A DNA stretch of 61,711 nucleotides, counting the filler. It is 4 parts of 4 records of this genome, joined end to end, with 100 filler letters (N's around TTAATTAATTAA, not from the genome) between each part and the next. Parts side by side here need not be neighbours in the genome. Positions count along the whole stretch, not along the records: positions 49,668 to 61,711 come from DRR723986_4804; 3 more parts are not named here. One strand, 5' to 3'. Shown here in pieces: positions 26,622 through 54,179 of this stretch. Within the stretch, counting starts at the first letter, position 1. Every line of letters starts with the position of its first letter. The notes under the pieces are model-generated. The model was not told where the DNA came from and searched no databases. It was given only the letters and a program-made list of their open reading frames with translations. The position numbers and the translations under genes are program-made.

Positions 26622-26721
26622 NNNNNNNNNNNNNNNNNNNNNNNNNNNNNNNNNNNNNNNNNNNNTTAATTAATTAANNNNNNNNNNNNNNNNNNNNNNN
26701 NNNNNNNNNNNNNNNNNNNNN
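26622..26721. other. artificial contig spacer
   Basis: 44 N + TTAATTAATTAA (stops in all six frames) + 44 N. Confidence 0.99.
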
Positions 26722-36317: not shown

Positions 36318-36417
36318 NNNNNNNNNNNNNNNNNNNNNNNNNNNNNNNNNNNNNNNNNNNNTTAATTAATTAANNNNNNNNNNNNNNNNNNNNNNNNNNN
36401 NNNNNNNNNNNNNNNNN
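36318..36417. other. artificial contig spacer
   Basis: 44 N + TTAATTAATTAA + 44 N. Confidence 0.99.
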
Positions 36418-47805: not shown

Positions 47806-48362
47806 TGAGCGACGAAGCGAAGACTGAAGACACAGAATCTGTCGAAACGCCTGAAAACGCCGCCCCGGAAGAGGCGACGCCGGAAGATACGATCCTCCGC
47901 CTCGAAGCGGAAAAGGAAGAGATGCGCGGCCAGCTGCTGCGTACGCTGGCTGATCTCGACAACACCCGCAAGCGTGCCCAGAAAGAGGTCGCCGATGCGC
48001 GGGTCTATGCGATCGAGAAATTCGCCGCAGACCTGCTCAGCGTCTCCGACAATCTCGCCCGCGCCCTCGCCGCCCTGCCGGACGGGGATCGCGACGCGCT
48101 CTCGGAAGCCGGCAAAAACCTCCTCAACGGCATCGAGATGACCGAGAAGGAACTACACACGGCGCTGGCCCGCAACGGTGTGTCCGTGATCGCAGCCCTG
48201 CCCGGCGATGCATTCGACCCGAACCTGCATCAGGCGGTGGCCAACGCCCCCTCCCCGCAGGCGCCCGGCACGATCCACGACGTGTTCCAGACCGGCTGGA
48301 AGATCGGCGACCGCGTGCTCCGCGCCGCCATGGTCGCCGTCAGCGCAGGCTCGACGAACTAG
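47802..48362 (+). CDS. grpE: nucleotide exchange factor
   Basis: LRTLADLDNTRKR, FDPNLHQAV, GWKIGDRVLRAAMVAVS; overlaps the hrcA stop. Confidence 0.96.
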   Translation: MMSDEAKTEDTESVETPENAAPEEATPEDTILRLEAEKEEMRGQLLRTLADLDNTRKRAQKEVADARVYAIEKFAADLLSVSDNLARALAALPDGDRDALSEAGKNLLNGIEMTEKELHTALARNGVSVIAALPGDAFDPNLHQAVANAPSPQAPGTIHDVFQTGWKIGDRVLRAAMVAVSAGSTN

Positions 48363-49183
48363 GCTTCGATTTTCAGATAAACCGCCGAAGCATCGTCCCT
48401 GCGCTTGATGCGGGGGATGTCTTCGTGGGGCGTGTCTTCGAAGTCGCGCAGCACGCGGATCAGGGCGGGCAGGCCTTTCTCCGACATGTCCGCCATCAGG
48501 CTTTCCAGCGTGTGGGTCGCATAGGGCGAGATCAGCCGGTAGAGGCCGTCGCTCATCAAGCAGACCTCATCACCCGGACCCATTGGTATCCGCGCAGTCT
48601 TGAGATTGCTCACAACTTCCGGTCCCAGGCCAAAGCCTGTCCCGATTTCATTGGACATCCGCCGGCTCTGGCGCAGCCAGCCCATGCGCTCTTCGGGCGT
48701 CAACGCCAATATGCGGCGGGCGGCAGCGGTCTCGTCTTCCGCCTTTTCCGCGTGACCGATCAGACGCACTTCTGACCCGGACCGGACAAGGGCCATGCAG
48801 TCGCCCATGAACACAACAACCGCTTCGCCGCCTTGTAGCTGCATCCAGATGCCGGAAGCGATGGGCAGAGCCTCGCCCGGCAATTTCTCTAACGGAATCT
48901 TGCTTTCAGCGTCAGCGCGCTGACGTACATCGGCGAGGACGGAGGCGAAATAGGCCTCGGGTGTCTCGCCGCTCTGAGGCCCCTGCATCAGCCGGTCTGA
49001 CAGCGCTTCAGCGATCCAGGCGGCGCCGCTTTCGCAGGCTGGAAACGGGCGCAAATCGGTCACATCGGTCGCCCCGTCCAGCACCCAGGCGGTGCCTGCG
49101 GCCGCACCGAATCCGGCCCGGTCATCACCTGTCTTGCCCGGCACGCCGGGGTCGTTCACCGTGCTGATGACATCCAGCTGCAT
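48359..49183 (-). CDS. PP2C-like phosphatase domain protein
   Basis: GDD, WVLDGAT, MGDC, LMSDG, RDDAS metal-binding motifs. Confidence 0.85.
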   Translation of the reverse strand: MQLDVISTVNDPGVPGKTGDDRAGFGAAAGTAWVLDGATDVTDLRPFPACESGAAWIAEALSDRLMQGPQSGETPEAYFASVLADVRQRADAESKIPLEKLPGEALPIASGIWMQLQGGEAVVVFMGDCMALVRSGSEVRLIGHAEKAEDETAAARRILALTPEERMGWLRQSRRMSNEIGTGFGLGPEVVSNLKTARIPMGPGDEVCLMSDGLYRLISPYATHTLESLMADMSEKGLPALIRVLRDFEDTPHEDIPRIKRRDDASAVYLKIEA

Positions 49184-49274
49184 CGCCCGCCCTCGTGTCA
49201 TATGCCCTGGGCCAAACGTCTAACATGGTTCGCCCAGCGCCGCACATGAACGCTTTGAGACGTTTGGCCGACCC

Positions 49275-49567
49275 TCAGCGCTCCACCAGTTCGACCCGCC
49301 GGTTCTGTGCCCGTCCGGCATCGCTGCCATTGGAAAACACCGGCGACAATGGTCCCACGCCATGGGGCTCCAGCCGGTCAGACGCAATCCCGTAATCCTG
49401 TTTCAGCGCCTCGGCGACAGCCCGAGCGCGGTCATCCGACAGCTTGCTGTTATAGGCGTAGGTGCCCTTGGAATCCGTATGTCCCACAATATAGAAAGCC
49501 TTATCCGGATGGGCGGTCAGATAGGCTACAATGGCATCTAGAGTATCCGTCTTGGTCAAGCCAGTCT
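49275..49567 (-). CDS. OmpA family protein C-terminal domain, 5' truncated
   Basis: VGHTDSKG..YNSKLS.DRA.AV, NRRVELV. Confidence 0.9.
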
Positions 49568-49667
49568 NNNNNNNNNNNNNNNNNNNNNNNNNNNNNNNNN
49601 NNNNNNNNNNNTTAATTAATTAANNNNNNNNNNNNNNNNNNNNNNNNNNNNNNNNNNNNNNNNNNNN
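49568..49667. other. artificial contig spacer
   Basis: 44 N + TTAATTAATTAA + 44 N. Confidence 0.99.
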
Positions 49668-50521
49668 CGGGCGGGCGGGGTTTGGGCCGCTGGGGTTTGT
49701 GCGGGGGCGCTGGCCTGTTGGGGCGTGGGCGGCACCGGATCAGGGGGCGCCACCTCCTCGAGGGCAGGAGGCGGCGCTGGGGTGTCGATGGTGGTCAGGG
49801 GGGAAAGCTGCCAGGTTGCATCGACAAACAAAAACACATCTTCCAAATCAGAGGCGCCCAATTCGCCCGGCACATGCGCCTGCCACGCCAGATAGCAGTG
49901 GTCAGGTTCCAGATCGCTCAGATCGCGCAAATCGGCCAAACCCGCGGCTTGGGCGGTGATCTGGGTGGCCCCAAGGCTGCGCAGCTCAGCCAGCAGCAGA
50001 TCGGGGCGCGCGCCCAGCGCCAACGCCGGGCCGGTCAACTGAAAGTGCAACAGCTGTTGGGATTGGGCCACAGGCGCTGCACAATCCACAGCATCGGCGC
50101 CATCTTGGGCTGTCGCCGTATCGGTGGTATCGGGGCCAGTATCGGGCCCAGTATCTGGGGCGCAAATTTCGGTCAGCTGCGCCAAGATCTGCGCCCGCGC
50201 GCCATTGGTATCGGGCTGCCCTTCCACCAGCGCGGGGATCTGATCGCGCGCGGCCAGTGCCAGGCGGATCAGCGCATCGCTGACCGCCACCTGACCCGAG
50301 CGCACCCGCTCGAACGCGGTTTCAAAATCGTGAATAAAGCCCGCCAGCTCGGCAAAGCCAAACATCGCACCGCTGCCCTTGATCGTGTGCAGATCGCGGA
50401 ACACCTGGTTGACCAGCCCGCCATCGCCCGGCGCCTCTTTCAGGTCGATCAACCCTTTTTCCAGGCTTTCCAGCAGCTCGGCCAGCTCTTCCATAAAGAC
50501 CTGGGTCAATTCGTCATTCAT
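49668..50521 (-). CDS. cheA: chemotaxis histidine kinase (Hpt/P2 region), 3' truncated
   Basis: FRDLHTIKGSGAMFGF Hpt motif, EDVFLFV, Pro/Ala-rich linker; follows cheY. Confidence 0.93.
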
Positions 50522-50886
50522 CAGCCCAGCACCTTTCTAATAACCGCCAGCAGCTTGTCTTGGGTGAAAGGTTTCACCATCCAGCCCAGGGCCCCGGCCG
50601 CGCGCGCCTGATCTTTCAGGTTCTCGGTGGAATCGGTGGACAGCACCACAATCGGCACGCCCTGCCCATGGGGGTGGGCCCGCAGCGCGCGGATCATCGA
50701 CAAACCATCCATATTTGGCATGTTTTGATCGGTAATAATGGCATCCACACGCTGTGCTGTGGCCAGGTTAAACCCTTCTTGGCCATCATTGGCCTCTAGC
50801 ACATCATAGCCCGCTTCGCGCAGCGTCAGGGCAATCATCCGCCGGATCGAGGGGCTGTCATCCACGGTTAGAACGGTTTTGCTCAT
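50521..50886 (-). CDS. cheY: chemotaxis response regulator
   Basis: Single receiver domain: VDDS, TDQNMPNMDG, LST, VKPF. Confidence 0.93.
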   Translation of the reverse strand: MSKTVLTVDDSPSIRRMIALTLREAGYDVLEANDGQEGFNLATAQRVDAIITDQNMPNMDGLSMIRALRAHPHGQGVPIVVLSTDSTENLKDQARAAGALGWMVKPFTQDKLLAVIRKVLG

Positions 50887-51200
50887 GCTGTCCTCGGGTC
50901 GTTGTTTTGGGGTAGGTTTGGCGCCAGAAACGGGGCAAAGACCGCCTGCATCGCATGCGCCTCAAGGCGTGGCCAAATGGGGTGATCTGCAGGGATCGGG
51001 GCAAAACCAAAGGGCACGCCCCGCAGCTGGGCCGCCAAGCCGGCCGCCAATAAAACCTGCAGGGGGCCAAAATCGATATGCGCAAGCGCGCTGGCATCCA
51101 AATGCACGCCCCCGCCCTGTAACGCCGCGCTTAATTGCTGTACCAATTCGGCCGATTGCGCATGATATAGTTCGGCTGGTAAAGCCAACTGCGTGACCAT
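50883..51200 (-). CDS. STAS-domain protein at the head of the che operon
   Basis: LDASALAHIDFGPLQVLLAA STAS-like motif; GGAG RBS; overlaps cheY. Confidence 0.8.
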   Translation of the reverse strand: MVTQLALPAELYHAQSAELVQQLSAALQGGGVHLDASALAHIDFGPLQVLLAAGLAAQLRGVPFGFAPIPADHPIWPRLEAHAMQAVFAPFLAPNLPQNNDPRTA

Positions 51201-51239
51201 TTTTTCTTCTCCACTTGCCACCTGGGCCAAGATGCGCTG

Positions 51240-51255
51240 TGCAAGTGCTCGGCCA
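51240..51255 (-). promoter_or_regulatory. putative sigma-54 (-24/-12) promoter
   Basis: Minus strand TGGCCGAGCACTTGCA: exact GG-N10-GC spacing with TGGC and TTGCA. Confidence 0.5.
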
Positions 51256-51449
51256 GGTTGAGAAAAAGAACGGTCAAAAACGCATGGTTTTAATGGCGCC
51301 AAAAGCAAGGCGCCGGGCTTTAATCATTATATATCAATATTTTATGTAATTTTTTGCGCAAAAGGGTAGGTGCACCACCCCAATGCCCCCGCCAAAAAAG
51401 CTTGATACAAGGGGCAGGCACACCAATTTTCTACCGCTTAAACGCAGCG

Positions 51450-51764
51450 CTAGCTGAGATGCGCCAAGGTGCCCATCATGAAATCGCGGTTGTAGCGCAG
51501 GGCACGCACGCGCGGGTCATCATCTGATTTGCGCATAACGGTGTCATAATCGGCCAGGCAAATCAGCTGCGCCTCGTTCTCGATGATCTGAAAGCTGCGC
51601 GCCCCCAGATAGGCACGGCGAAAGGCTGCGGCCAACCGGGGGGTGGGAAAGTTTAAAATCGTCGCGGTGCCACCGGCGGTATTTTGCAGCCCGTAGCATA
51701 CCACTTTTTGACGGTCGAAAATAAAATCGGCAAATTCCACTTGGCTTTCACGATAGCTTTGCAT
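51450..51764 (-). CDS. hypothetical protein (104 aa)
   Basis: Fills an otherwise empty gap, AGGGGG RBS-like sequence before ATG, protein-like composition; no recognisable motif. Confidence 0.6.
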   Translation of the reverse strand: MQSYRESQVEFADFIFDRQKVVCYGLQNTAGGTATILNFPTPRLAAAFRRAYLGARSFQIIENEAQLICLADYDTVMRKSDDDPRVRALRYNRDFMMGTLAHLS

Positions 51765-51904: not shown

Positions 51905-53005
51905 TTAATTTTTGGGCAAACCTGCGTCGTCAGTGGGGCCCAACGCATAAGACGGGCGCGCAAAATGCCAAAAAAACCTTTCAAAATTTGGGCAGGCCCC
52001 TGCGGCCAGCTCTAGCAGCGCCACGGCCGATGGCGGCAGGCTTTCGCCCAAGTGCCAGCGCATCGCTGGCCAATCGCCGCGCAAGGCCCGGTTGGGGGCT
52101 GCAAAAATGGCCTCGGTCAGGGGCGCCAAAATGCCCTGCCCCACTGGCGCGGGAAACTGAAACGCGCCCGCGGGCAGGTGCACATCCGCCAGCACCCCGC
52201 CGCGGCCCGGCTCGGCCATGGCGCTGTGCCAGCGCACCACCAGCCAGCTGTGATAGCCATCTGTGGCCGGCACCTGGGGCACCGCCTGCAGCGGCATATC
52301 GGCCTGCGCGCGCAGCCACATGGCCCAGGCCATGGGCACGGGCTGGCCGGCAAAGCGCAACGCCAGCGCAACCTCGGCCAGCAAATCGGCATCTTGCGCC
52401 AAAAACGCCACCGTGCCTGCAAAATGCAGGCTTTGCAGCGCCTCGGGCGGCAGGTTGACCCGCCTGCGCCCGTAATCTGCCTGGTAAAACACCAGATGTG
52501 TTAGCGCGTAGGCTGCATTTTGGTTGGGCACCGCGAATTGGCGGCTTTGCCCCAGAAACCCCGCCAATCGCTGCCCCAGGCCCCGGTCGGGGCGGCCCAG
52601 CCCACGGCGCGCAAACAGCGCCGCCGCCTCGGCGCGCTGTTGATCAGACAGCTCTGCCAGATCAAGCCGCTGGTCATGGCACCATTGCGCCAGCACCGAA
52701 CCCACGCGCCCCGGCATGCCCAGATCCTCGAGATCCAGCGCCATAGACAGAAAAAAGCGGTAATATTGGGGGAAATCCCCCGCCAGCTGGGCCAAGCTGG
52801 CATAGGTTTCGTGATAGAGCGCCAAAACATCTGGCCCCACCTCGGCACCGGTGGCGCGCAACACGCATAGGAATTCGGCATTTTCTTTCAGCCACATCAC
52901 ATCGCCCATCGGCCTGCGCTGCTGCAACAGCGCGCAGGCCAGCCGGGCCATAGCCCCCGCTTGTGGCGCGGGGCTGGGGCGGCGAAAGGCCAGAACCTGT
53001 GCCAC
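51905..53005 (-). CDS. uncharacterised helical protein (DUF6902-like)
   Basis: WLKENAE, FPQYYRFFLS, AELSD.QRAEA, AAYALTHLVFY, DLLAEV blocks; GTG start 10 nt after the upstream peptide stop. Confidence 0.8.
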   Translation of the reverse strand: MAQVLAFRRPSPAPQAGAMARLACALLQQRRPMGDVMWLKENAEFLCVLRATGAEVGPDVLALYHETYASLAQLAGDFPQYYRFFLSMALDLEDLGMPGRVGSVLAQWCHDQRLDLAELSDQQRAEAAALFARRGLGRPDRGLGQRLAGFLGQSRQFAVPNQNAAYALTHLVFYQADYGRRRVNLPPEALQSLHFAGTVAFLAQDADLLAEVALALRFAGQPVPMAWAMWLRAQADMPLQAVPQVPATDGYHSWLVVRWHSAMAEPGRGGVLADVHLPAGAFQFPAPVGQGILAPLTEAIFAAPNRALRGDWPAMRWHLGESLPPSAVALLELAAGACPNFERFFWHFARPSYALGPTDDAGLPKN

Positions 53006-53015
53006 GATCTGTGGC

Positions 53016-53213
53016 TTAGCTGTTTAAGCCTGCGATATAGGCGCCCGCCGCCTGGCCCAGCAGCATATCGCTGCCCGCCTGCGGGCCCAGCCCGGCGATA
53101 TAGCTGCCCGTGGCTTGGCCTGCCAGCATCTGCGCCGGGGCATCTTGGGGGTGCGGCGCGGGGGTGGCCTGTGGCATGGCCAATTCGGCGGTGGGTTTCA
53201 AAACTGCAGTCAT
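53016..53213 (-). CDS. small Gly/Ala-rich peptide with internal repeat (DUF6749-like)
   Basis: Strong AAAGGAG RBS; MLAGQATGSYIAGL and MLLGQAAGAYIAGL repeated with a 21-aa period. Confidence 0.78.
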   Translation of the reverse strand: MTAVLKPTAELAMPQATPAPHPQDAPAQMLAGQATGSYIAGLGPQAGSDMLLGQAAGAYIAGLNS

Positions 53214-53372
53214 TTCGGCTTCTCCTTTGTGGTGAATGGATAAAAGTCAAAACAGCTTTGGGCTGTATGTCAACAAAGTTATTCCCGCTTTGGATGTTTT
53301 TACCCGCACAGCCGGCCCACGGCTTGCCTGCGCCGGGCCATGGGGGGTAGATGGAACAAAGAGGAGAGGCAG

Positions 53373-54179
53373 ATGAAAATCGCGACGTTTAACATCAACG
53401 GTGTGAAAGCCCGCATTCAAACGCTGTGCGATTGGCTGGATGAAACCAAGCCCGATATCGCCATCTTGCAAGAGATCAAATCGATCGATCAGGCCTTTCC
53501 CCGCGAACTGATCGAGGATCGCGGCTATGTGGTGGAAACCCATGGGCAGAAAAGCTTCAACGGCGTGGCGCTGCTATCGCGCTACCCGCTAGAAGATGTC
53601 AGCCGTGGCCTGCCGGGCGACGAGGGCGATGACCAGGCCCGCTATATCGAGGCCACCGTGGTGGGCAAAACCGCGCTGCGCATTTGCGGGCTTTATCTGC
53701 CCAATGGCAACCCGGTCGAGCTGGACCCGACAGGCCAGCCCGTGGCGGGGGGCAAATATGCCTATAAACTGGCCTGGATGGCACGGCTAGAGGCCCGCGC
53801 CAAGGCGCTGCTGGCGCAGGAAATTCCGTTTTTGATGGCTGGCGATTACAACATCATCCCCCAAGCCGAAGATGCCAAGCGCCCCGAAGCCTGGGCCGAG
53901 GATGCGCTTTATCGTCAAACCAGCCGCGAGGCATTTCGCAAACTCTTGGCGTTGGGCCTGACCGAGGCATTTCGCGCCCGGGTGCAGGGGCCGGGGCATT
54001 ATTCGTTTTGGGATTATCAGGCCGGCGCCTGGAACCGCGACGATGGTATTCGCATCGATCACTTTCTGCTTAGCCCACAATGTGCCGATATGATGACAGA
54101 TTGCCACATCCAGCGCGATATGCGCGGGCGGGAAAAACCATCAGATCATGTGCCAGTTTGGCTAGAGCTAGACAACTAA
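53373..54179 (+). CDS. xth: exodeoxyribonuclease III
   Basis: MKIATFNING, LQEIK, YLPNGN, GDYN, RIDH, SDHVPV. Confidence 0.96.
   Translation: MKIATFNINGVKARIQTLCDWLDETKPDIAILQEIKSIDQAFPRELIEDRGYVVETHGQKSFNGVALLSRYPLEDVSRGLPGDEGDDQARYIEATVVGKTALRICGLYLPNGNPVELDPTGQPVAGGKYAYKLAWMARLEARAKALLAQEIPFLMAGDYNIIPQAEDAKRPEAWAEDALYRQTSREAFRKLLALGLTEAFRARVQGPGHYSFWDYQAGAWNRDDGIRIDHFLLSPQCADMMTDCHIQRDMRGREKPSDHVPVWLELDN

Follow-up and report, generated by a model that had tools for sequence, protein, structure and literature searches.

Multi-core peptides that are made on the ribosome and modified after translation (RiPPs), such as the cyanobactins, the microviridins and other graspetides, the borosins, the fungal dikaritins and the plant burpitides, are made from precursors in which a leader is followed by short, spaced cores in variable copy number, and which are encoded beside one tailoring enzyme. 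Small products are also drawn from dedicated ribosomal precursor peptides in the case of pyrroloquinoline quinone (PQQ, from PqqA), mycofactocin (from MftA) and the pearlins, where a small peptide serves as mere raw material. We analysed a stretch of 61,711 nucleotides (nt; hereafter the window) from a bacterial family for which the source names point to Rhodobacteraceae/Rhodobacterales. In it, a small open reading frame (ORF) encoding a leader and two repeat units stands directly upstream of a gene for a protein of the Pfam family DUF6902. The general definition of a RiPP locus, a precursor gene (leader plus cores) beside a candidate tailoring-enzyme gene, applies to the window pair, and the layout is the same at all 49 of the DUF6902 loci considered here. 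The combination of a leader, repeated cores and one enzyme is already known from multi-core RiPPs. Known systems of that kind do not share the families of the enzyme and the precursor, nor a dedicated exporter of the drug/metabolite transporter (DMT) type.

The class-defining enzymes of the multi-core RiPPs (subtilisin-like PatA/PatG, an ATP-grasp ligase, a fused N-methyltransferase, DUF3328/UstYa or BURP) were absent from Pfam scans of the DUF6902 pair and its neighbours, and the DUF6902 cassettes differ from these classes in unit motif and DMT exporter as well. Whereas the PQQ, mycofactocin and pearlin pathways combine radical-SAM or other cofactor enzymes with a single core, a DUF6902 cassette combines one α/α-toroid-like protein with up to 20 cores; an exporter of the small-molecule type would fit the use of a peptide as raw material. 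We consider it reasonably probable that the pair represents a RiPP-like cassette whose units are each recognised and modified by DUF6902.

Both ORFs of the window pair are encoded on the minus strand. The small one (53016..53213, −) has an ATG start and a TAA stop and encodes 65 amino acids (aa). A Shine-Dalgarno-like AAAGGAGAA (53220..53228, −) is located 6 nt 5′ of the ATG, and relatives have similar GGAG/GGGA motifs ahead of their peptide genes. The encoded peptide opens with a Pro/Ala-rich leader (aa 1-28, MTAVLKPTAEL..., 53130..53213, −), the N-terminal motif of which is common to the relatives. The leader is followed by repeat unit 1 (aa 29-42, MLAGQATGSYIAGL, 53088..53129, −), which aligns to the 13-residue unit of the family, by the linker GPQAGSD (aa 43-49, 53067..53087, −), by repeat unit 2 (aa 50-63, MLLGQAAGAYIAGL, 53025..53066, −) at a period of 63 nt from unit 1, and by an NS tail with the stop codon (53016..53024, −). 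The corresponding DNA repeat (53092-53129 and 53029-53066, 63-nt spacing) is 76% identical between its copies. A 10-nt spacer (53006..53015, −) separates the peptide stop from the GTG start of the DUF6902 gene (51905..53005, −; 366 aa), which encodes the proposed peptide-modifying enzyme. This start is supported because the first 18 residues that it adds align to the N-termini of homologues; public gene calls in close relatives begin 18-19 residues later and yield proteins of 347-348 aa. The original prediction, made from the letters of the window, had described this arrangement, from the ribosome-binding site to the enzyme ORF 10 nt downstream, and the reading agrees with it throughout, the minus strand and the GTG start being additions. 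In both ORFs the GC content is higher at third than at second codon positions (GC3/GC2 of 0.76/0.56 in the small ORF and 0.74/0.50 in the large ORF), as expected of coding sequence, and the overlapping alternative frames display no such pattern. The two genes are probably co-transcribed. Counts of promoter- and terminator-like patterns between 51300 and 53450 did not exceed the shuffled expectation.

The prediction further named as a check whether homologues of the large protein always have an upstream repeat peptide with variable copy number, and the relatives bear this out. We read the DNA upstream of DUF6902 at 49 loci (30 from genomes of the family, 16 from further genomes, two from named metagenome-assembled relatives, and the window). 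Every one of them, these being the homologues examined whose upstream region is intact, carries a leader-plus-repeat ORF on the same strand, which ends 10-147 nt before the enzyme gene. A strict pattern recognised 48 of these ORFs and one, with MMCVS-type units (L043), was recognised by eye; the set includes two ORFs cut by contig ends and one cut by a masked stretch. The peptide ORFs are 57-420 aa long and contain 2 to 20 tandem units. Repeat numbers from draft assemblies are lower bounds, because in one genome (G056) the repeat-peptide gene is split across the ends of contigs C63 and C101 (7 + 5 pattern matches).

The leaders share the motif M-[TSN]-A-[QL]-x-K, with A3 present in 34 and K6 in 31 of 42 relatives. 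Aligned over 48 peptides, the 323 units yield G-[DE]-A-[VT]-E-[ML]-F-[ST]-S-[GW]-S as their consensus. Counted from the aromatic residue at position 0 (Phe in 93% of units, Tyr in 11 units), a unit has Gly at −6, Asp or Glu at −5 (85%), Ala or Gly at −4, Val or Thr at −3 (91%), Glu at −2 (53%), Met, Leu or Ala at −1, Thr or Ser at +1, Ser at +2 (87%), Gly or Trp at +3 and Ser at +4. Position +4 is followed by a linker of variable length and sequence that begins with AP or GP; in 28 of the 48 peptides, the ORF stops directly after the last core, at position +4. Core variants across the family include FSSGS, FTSWS, FTTSM, FTSCA, YIAGL and others. The window unit, G-Q-A-[TA]-G-[SA]-Y-I-A-G-L, fits the wider family frame G-x-A-[VT]-x-x-aromatic-x-x-G-x. 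A homologue search with the peptide itself returned only two near-identical proteins, and the relatives were reached via the enzyme; the best of the look-alikes of the peptide in the ESM Atlas scored 0.78, under the lead level. Pfam yielded repeat artefacts only, with no passing stretch, and no family for the window peptide or eight relatives, so that the suggestion in the original prediction that the peptide belongs to DUF6749 is not supported. NCBIfam contains no family for either ORF.

The association also holds in the reverse direction. Of 201 genomes from the bacterial family to which the window belongs, 50 carry DUF6902 (49 of 200 genera). In a class-wide sample, it scores above the Pfam gathering cut-off in four of four genomes of the family and in none of 397 others. 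A back-translated pattern of the core, M-F-[ST]-[ST]-G-[ST]-A-P, searched over the 201 family genomes, matched in 17 of them, and the reversed-pattern control gave zero matches. Fourteen matches are immediately beside DUF6902, 11 of these in the form of 3-17 tandem matches; the three away from DUF6902 are lone single matches, one of them in a DUF6902-negative genome. Tandem arrays of the core motif were found only beside DUF6902 in these genomes. The only strongly diverged DUF6902 gene (G048, L040:4983-6071, E 5e-30), located between erpA and xthA, has lost T-H170, E211 and Y-H251-252, and no peptide ORF of at least 20 aa with core units was found upstream of it. This gene looks like a relic of the cassette. 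In a 70-78% relative (L002:4001-4605), the DUF6902 frame is apparently interrupted, with residues 9-123 aligned in the best single tblastn piece and a longest ORF of 128 aa; the 65-aa peptide gene is intact.

That the two units of the window diverge partly by synonymous changes had been taken as a sign of selection on the peptide. Between the units, 8 of 14 codons differ, five of them synonymously and three non-synonymously, and within genes of the family the core differs mostly by synonymous changes. When units of the same gene are paired (1284 pairs, 36 genes of four or more units each), core positions +1 to +4 display synonymous differences in 35-55% and non-synonymous differences in 2-4% of pairs. 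At positions −5 to −1 of the same pairs, non-synonymous differences reach 34-46%. The pattern that defines a unit constrains some of these positions by itself, and position +1, which is unconstrained, gives 44% synonymous against 4% non-synonymous differences. Compared with the 96%-identical relative, the ratio of non-synonymous to synonymous substitution rates (dN/dS) stands at 0.05 in the window peptide, at 0.25 in the enzyme and at 0.02 in xthA next to them. The peptide of L002 is 82% identical to that of the window and retains the unit G-x-A-T-G-S-Y-I-A-G-L despite 12 codon changes in the leader and elsewhere. These comparisons indicate that purifying selection on the window copy is ongoing.

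The large protein is a full-length member of DUF6902 (PF21843; 340.1 bits against a gathering cut-off of 27 bits, E 1.6e-101, with residues 1-350 aligned to positions 1-350 of the 351-position model), in agreement with the family named in the original prediction. It also matches DUF6895 (PF21836; 74.3 bits against a cut-off of 23.8 bits, E 1.4e-20, residues 27-244). As this match is weaker than the DUF6902 match and overlaps it, we regard the window protein as a relative of DUF6895 and not as a core member. DUF6902 is a small family: among 1.84 billion cluster representatives, a profile built from 31 members picked out 218 at E ≤ 0.001 and 107 at E ≤ 1e-30. Public names of the homologues, all of which are from Rhodobacterales genera, read 'DUF6902 family protein' or 'hypothetical protein'. 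The 31-member alignment, in which the sequences are 38-44% identical to the window protein except for the one 96% relative, contains 62 invariant columns, with the window protein included. Among these columns are the blocks W38-K40-E41-N42-A43-E44, P79-Q-Y-Y-R-F84, S120-D-x-Q-R-x-E126, Y166-x-x-T-H170, D207-x-x-x-E211 and Y251-H252, and the stretches previously singled out as resembling active sites (WLKENAE, QYYRF, YALTHLVFY, DLLAEV and YHSW) coincide with them. Cys is absent from the invariant and nearly invariant residues that the window protein shares with the 31 sequences. Only three columns of the enzyme track the distinction between W-type and G-type cores, and none of the three is convincing.

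An AlphaFold2 model calculated on this alignment (predicted local distance difference test score 87.6, predicted template modelling score 0.87) is of high confidence and all-helical, as the prediction had it. Each of the six conserved blocks opens a helix (at residues 36, 79, 121, 162, 206 and 251), a spacing that, in the model, would be the one expected of the six inner helices of a toroid. VIA-align superimposes residues 12-272 on α/α-toroid enzymes at Z 8-11 with a root-mean-square deviation (r.m.s.d.) of about 4 Å, where Z values of 10-11 in helical models may, as the tool warns, reflect only a common helical arrangement; the fold is for this reason called α/α-toroid-like here. The top match is a class II terpene cyclase (9mhs_B, Z 11.1, r.m.s.d. 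4.2 Å, 227 residues), followed by the β subunits of the protein prenyltransferases GGTase-I and FTase (Z 10.6-10.7), the LanC-like domain of the lanthipeptide synthetase CuvL (Z 10.0, 253 residues) and the sugar 2-epimerases AGE and cellobiose 2-epimerase (Z 8.6); glycoside hydrolases are likewise among the best matches. Sequence identity in the alignments with the LanC-like domain and the prenyltransferase β subunits is 7-14%. Sequence searches of the PDB with the DUF6902 profile and a DUF6895 protein gave only noise (E 0.26-1.3) and thus no solved relative. The protein has not turned out to be a known unrelated enzyme, an outcome that the original prediction had named as fatal to it, and what the model provides is a generic α/α-toroid-like arrangement only. 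LanC-type cyclase domains and protein prenyltransferase β subunits are of a similar fold class and act on short peptide motifs, and DUF6902 differs from them in lacking sequence similarity, a conserved Cys and a His-Cys-Cys zinc site, most of its cores being free of Cys.

The identity of these structural matches bears on an alternative in which DUF6902 acts, as many α/α-toroid enzymes do, on a small molecule such as a sugar or a terpenoid-like substrate, EamA, the DMT-type transporter encoded downstream at many loci, exports the product, and the repeat ORF is a regulatory leader or incidental. In its favour, terpene cyclases, prenyltransferase β subunits, glycoside hydrolases and sugar 2-epimerases are the best matches, and EamA-family transporters typically move small metabolites, but neither the DxDD motif of class II terpene cyclases nor a Zn-binding Cys is conserved in the 31-sequence alignment. 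Furthermore, attenuator leaders do not look like these ORFs, which are 57-420 aa long and in which many positions of the unit are selected at the amino-acid level; peptide and enzyme are never apart in the 49 loci while the decayed enzyme has lost its peptide, and duplicated peptide genes also stand ahead of the related DUF6895 genes. We therefore consider this alternative very improbable.

A member of DUF6895 has been reported, according to the title of the paper, as a lasso-peptide epimerase (Shi et al., ACS Catal 2026; cited in PMC13352647 and PMC13453073). A phylum-wide sample of 401 genomes yielded only two genuine DUF6895 genes, and both sit downstream of small, duplicated peptides. At one locus (L068:5251-6885) there are two 65-aa paralogues (69% identical), together with a papain-like C39/C70 peptidase, an O-methyltransferase and a transporter of the major facilitator superfamily; at the other (L069:5425-7338) there is one 143-aa peptide ORF with two internal repeats. 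All four peptide copies end in G-x-L-[VA]-G-[PR]-W-[FY]-[VI]. DUF6902 and the two DUF6895 proteins have in common W38, Y166-x-x-[TS]-H170, D207-x-x-x-E211 and Y251-H252, the second of these within a longer motif, Y-x-x-[TS]-H-x-x-F-[FY]-x-x-[DE]-[YF]-G. The epimerase described in that title and DUF6902 are thus alike in sequence, in shared motifs and in that both families are encoded beside small peptide genes. They differ in that Pfam lists DUF6902 as a family of its own, which extends further at the C-terminus (residues about 270-350), and in that a multi-unit repeat peptide takes the place of the lasso precursor as partner; genes for a lasso cyclase or peptidase were not found near the DUF6902 loci, whether beside the window pair or in the relatives' flanks. 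These parallels, which are drawn from sequence, support but do not prove that the whole DUF6895/DUF6902 superfamily tailors adjacent ribosomal peptides.

At 32 of the 49 loci, a gene for an EamA/DMT transporter of about 305-313 aa follows the enzyme gene directly at its 3′ side on the same strand, and the two genes often share a few bases. Orthologues of this transporter (44-100% identity) are found in 31 of the 50 DUF6902-positive genomes, always adjacent to the cassette, and in one of the 151 DUF6902-negative genomes, as a fragment that begins at base 2 of a contig. Other EamA matches in the family are paralogues of at most 38% identity. One cassette orthologue (G094:C1:1466937-1467791) is possibly a pseudogene because it contains one in-frame TGA. 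The full cassette appears to consist of a precursor (a short conserved leader and 2-20 units), DUF6902 and a dedicated EamA/DMT-type exporter. The transporter is absent from the window lineage (the window, L001 and probably L002), and the loci without EamA tend towards fewer units and longer enzyme branches. The original prediction had stated that neither a protease nor an exporter is adjacent. In line with the first part, no protease was found near any locus; the second is correct for the window lineage but not for the 32 related loci with a transporter. With this qualification, and without the DUF6749 assignment, the RiPP-type reading that the prediction put forward, in which the large protein would modify, cleave or cross-link the repeats, is partly supported. 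It has passed the comparative test, and the superfamily to which the enzyme belongs has a member reported, by title, to modify peptides.

The cassette of the relatives is located between xthA and erpA/dgt/argS. In three of the four DUF6902-negative genomes examined, xthA is directly beside erpA and a dgt-like gene with no DUF6902 or EamA in between (at the fourth locus, neither flanking gene is within 1.5 kb). As the negative genomes have this empty site, the cassette behaves as an insertion/deletion unit at xthA|erpA. The housekeeping neighbourhood is one of several features that would suit a different arrangement, a protein-maturation pair in which the repeat protein (for example, a disordered, acidic one) works intact and uncleaved and DUF6902 is its modifying enzyme, chaperone or binding partner. 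No protease was found near any locus, 17 of the 49 loci, including that of the window, have no exporter, and the peptides, their translations judged by eye, display no signal peptide. We think such a pair unlikely, considering (i) that a copy number of 2-20 with a fixed unit and a fixed ORF end fits a dosage of units better, (ii) that the linkers vary freely while the cores are under strong purifying selection, and (iii) that a transporter of the small-molecule type travels with the pair in 32 of the 49 loci.

Under the RiPP-like reading that we prefer, DUF6902 would bind each unit (in the window, G-Q-A-[TA]-G-[SA]-Y-I-A-G-L) and modify it by cofactor-free or metal-assisted acid-base chemistry in a pocket that would be lined by the residues shared with DUF6895 (Y166, T169-H170, D207, E211 and Y251-H252). 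By analogy with the DUF6895 epimerase, the reaction may be an L-to-D epimerisation of one residue per unit. This is the most likely single chemistry, with a probability that we nevertheless put well short of even; we favour it because the only characterised relative is, going by its title, an epimerase, because the conserved residues comprise His, Asp, Glu and Tyr without Cys, and because the features common to the units are at the level of the backbone, together with an aromatic residue. The short modified cores would then be freed by proteases encoded elsewhere and, in the three-gene form, the products would exit the cell via the DMT transporter.

Several observations weigh against this reading. 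DMT/EamA transporters usually carry small metabolites, which leaves the route of peptide release and export in doubt, and peptidase families are absent from the window neighbours and from the 1.5-5 kb flanks of the relatives, a protease encoded elsewhere being outside the scope of these scans. The enzyme has no PqqD-like RiPP recognition element, a domain that is common but not universal among RiPP enzymes; PF21843 and PF21836 are its only matches at E ≤ 1. Foldseek found no match in the PDB at E ≤ 0.001, the toroid likeness is subject to the warning on Z values given above, and the analogy with the epimerase is taken from the title of a paper. The window unit is an outlier, with no acidic residue at −5, Tyr at 0 and Ala at +2. 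No EamA orthologue is present in the 61.7 kb of the window, and the window enzyme, which is atypical in composition, has by far the longest branch (2.2 against a median of 0.42). With no exporter, no acidic −5, no Ser +2, only two units and the longest branch, the window copy may act differently or be losing its function. Evidence of expression, too, is a weak hint. The small ORF is covered by contigs that were assembled from two studies' RNA libraries and are 95-99% identical to the window (among them X16 record 12, 52975-53224), and one of 462 nt (X14 record 5, 52743-53204) bridges both ORFs, but such libraries can hold DNA, the contigs show neither strand nor transcript ends, and a bridging contig does not prove a single transcript. 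The contigs leave 53276-53342 and, in most runs, much of the enzyme gene bare, and these bare parts carry no meaning.

Some of these observations would also be expected if the family cassette were functional and the window copy a relic heading for loss. Its core lacks the acidic −5 and the Ser +2 present in 85-87% of units, its two units are diverged, its enzyme has the long branch and atypical composition just described, no EamA orthologue accompanies it, the upstream TGTGGATAA pair found in 31 of 41 relatives is missing, and a clearly decayed copy exists elsewhere (G048). Against decay of the window copy speak the fit of its protein to all 62 invariant columns, the intactness of both ORFs, the dN/dS values of 0.05 (peptide) and 0.25 (enzyme), the retention of the window-type unit in L002 despite codon changes elsewhere, and the coverage of both ORFs by RNA-library contigs, and we judge it distinctly improbable that the copy is a relic. 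We read the window pair instead as a derived two-gene version of a family-specific cassette and, as far as sequence comparison goes, it appears to be the most derived variant, with a Tyr core, two units and no exporter.

The upstream region of the relatives contains a recurrent motif, TGTGGATAA, which we take to be the reverse complement of the DnaA-box consensus, TTATCCACA. A pair of these motifs, at about −110 and about −186 from the peptide start, is present with at most one mismatch at 31 of 41 loci (24 exact), against a mean of 2.6 and a maximum of 7 loci in shuffled controls. Conserved A-rich/TTGCAA and GTGCAA blocks are located nearer to the peptide gene in relatives L003-L054. Neither window positions 53214-53473 nor L002 contain the motif, and it is also missing at three empty xthA|erpA sites and at the decayed G048 locus. 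Patterns for CtrA, LexA, lux-box-like and RpoN sites matched at 0-3 loci each in the 41 upstream regions.

A full-text literature search, whose coverage does not extend to subscription papers and supplements, returned nothing on DUF6902, on five core motifs, or on this family among the multi-core RiPPs of Rhodobacteraceae/Rhodobacterales. The pairing probably represents an undescribed system for making modified peptides, since it recurs, with 2 to 20 copies of the unit and often with an exporter, in about a quarter of the genera of the family. Our broadest proposal, to which we would give somewhat less than an even chance, is that these loci make a new class of ribosomal product confined to a marine Roseobacter-group family. 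Up to 20 copies of a 5-11-residue core would be matured by DUF6902, an α/α-toroid maturase and sister to DUF6895, exported by the DMT transporter, and controlled from a region of their own with paired DnaA-box-like sites. The outcome would be an abundant, small and diffusible peptide, or a metabolite derived from one, that might for example serve as signal, metal binder or antagonist, and DUF6895/DUF6902 would constitute a general peptide-tailoring superfamily acting on G-x-x-[VT]-x-x-aromatic cores. If the RiPP-like reading is right, about a quarter of the genera in an ecologically dominant marine family carry an undescribed two- or three-gene pathway to a peptide product, DUF6902 gains a substrate from a precursor family absent from Pfam, and the just-emerging DUF6895 enzyme family is extended beyond lasso peptides. 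The cassette would then also offer a very compact system for peptide engineering, with a single enzyme, a recognition unit that occurs in repeats and core variants that amount to a natural library.

Outside the gene pair, Rfam gave no match at E ≤ 0.1 between 51000 and 54000, and masked runs of N (paired, 44-base) are found at window positions 26622-26721, 36318-36417 and 49568-49667, all of them away from the pair. Directly downstream of the enzyme gene, a 104-aa ORF (51450-51764, −) matches no Pfam family and has a 100% identical counterpart in L001. RNA-library contigs from all four runs cover it, one of them at a word depth of 20.7. As it was found only in the window lineage, we rejected it as a third component of the cassette. 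Further downstream (48359-51308, −), the window encodes a STAS-domain protein, a CheY-like receiver, an Hpt-domain protein with a masked stretch inside, an OmpA-like fragment and a PP2C phosphatase, so that its STAS/CheY/Hpt flank differs from the erpA/dgt/argS flank of the relatives.

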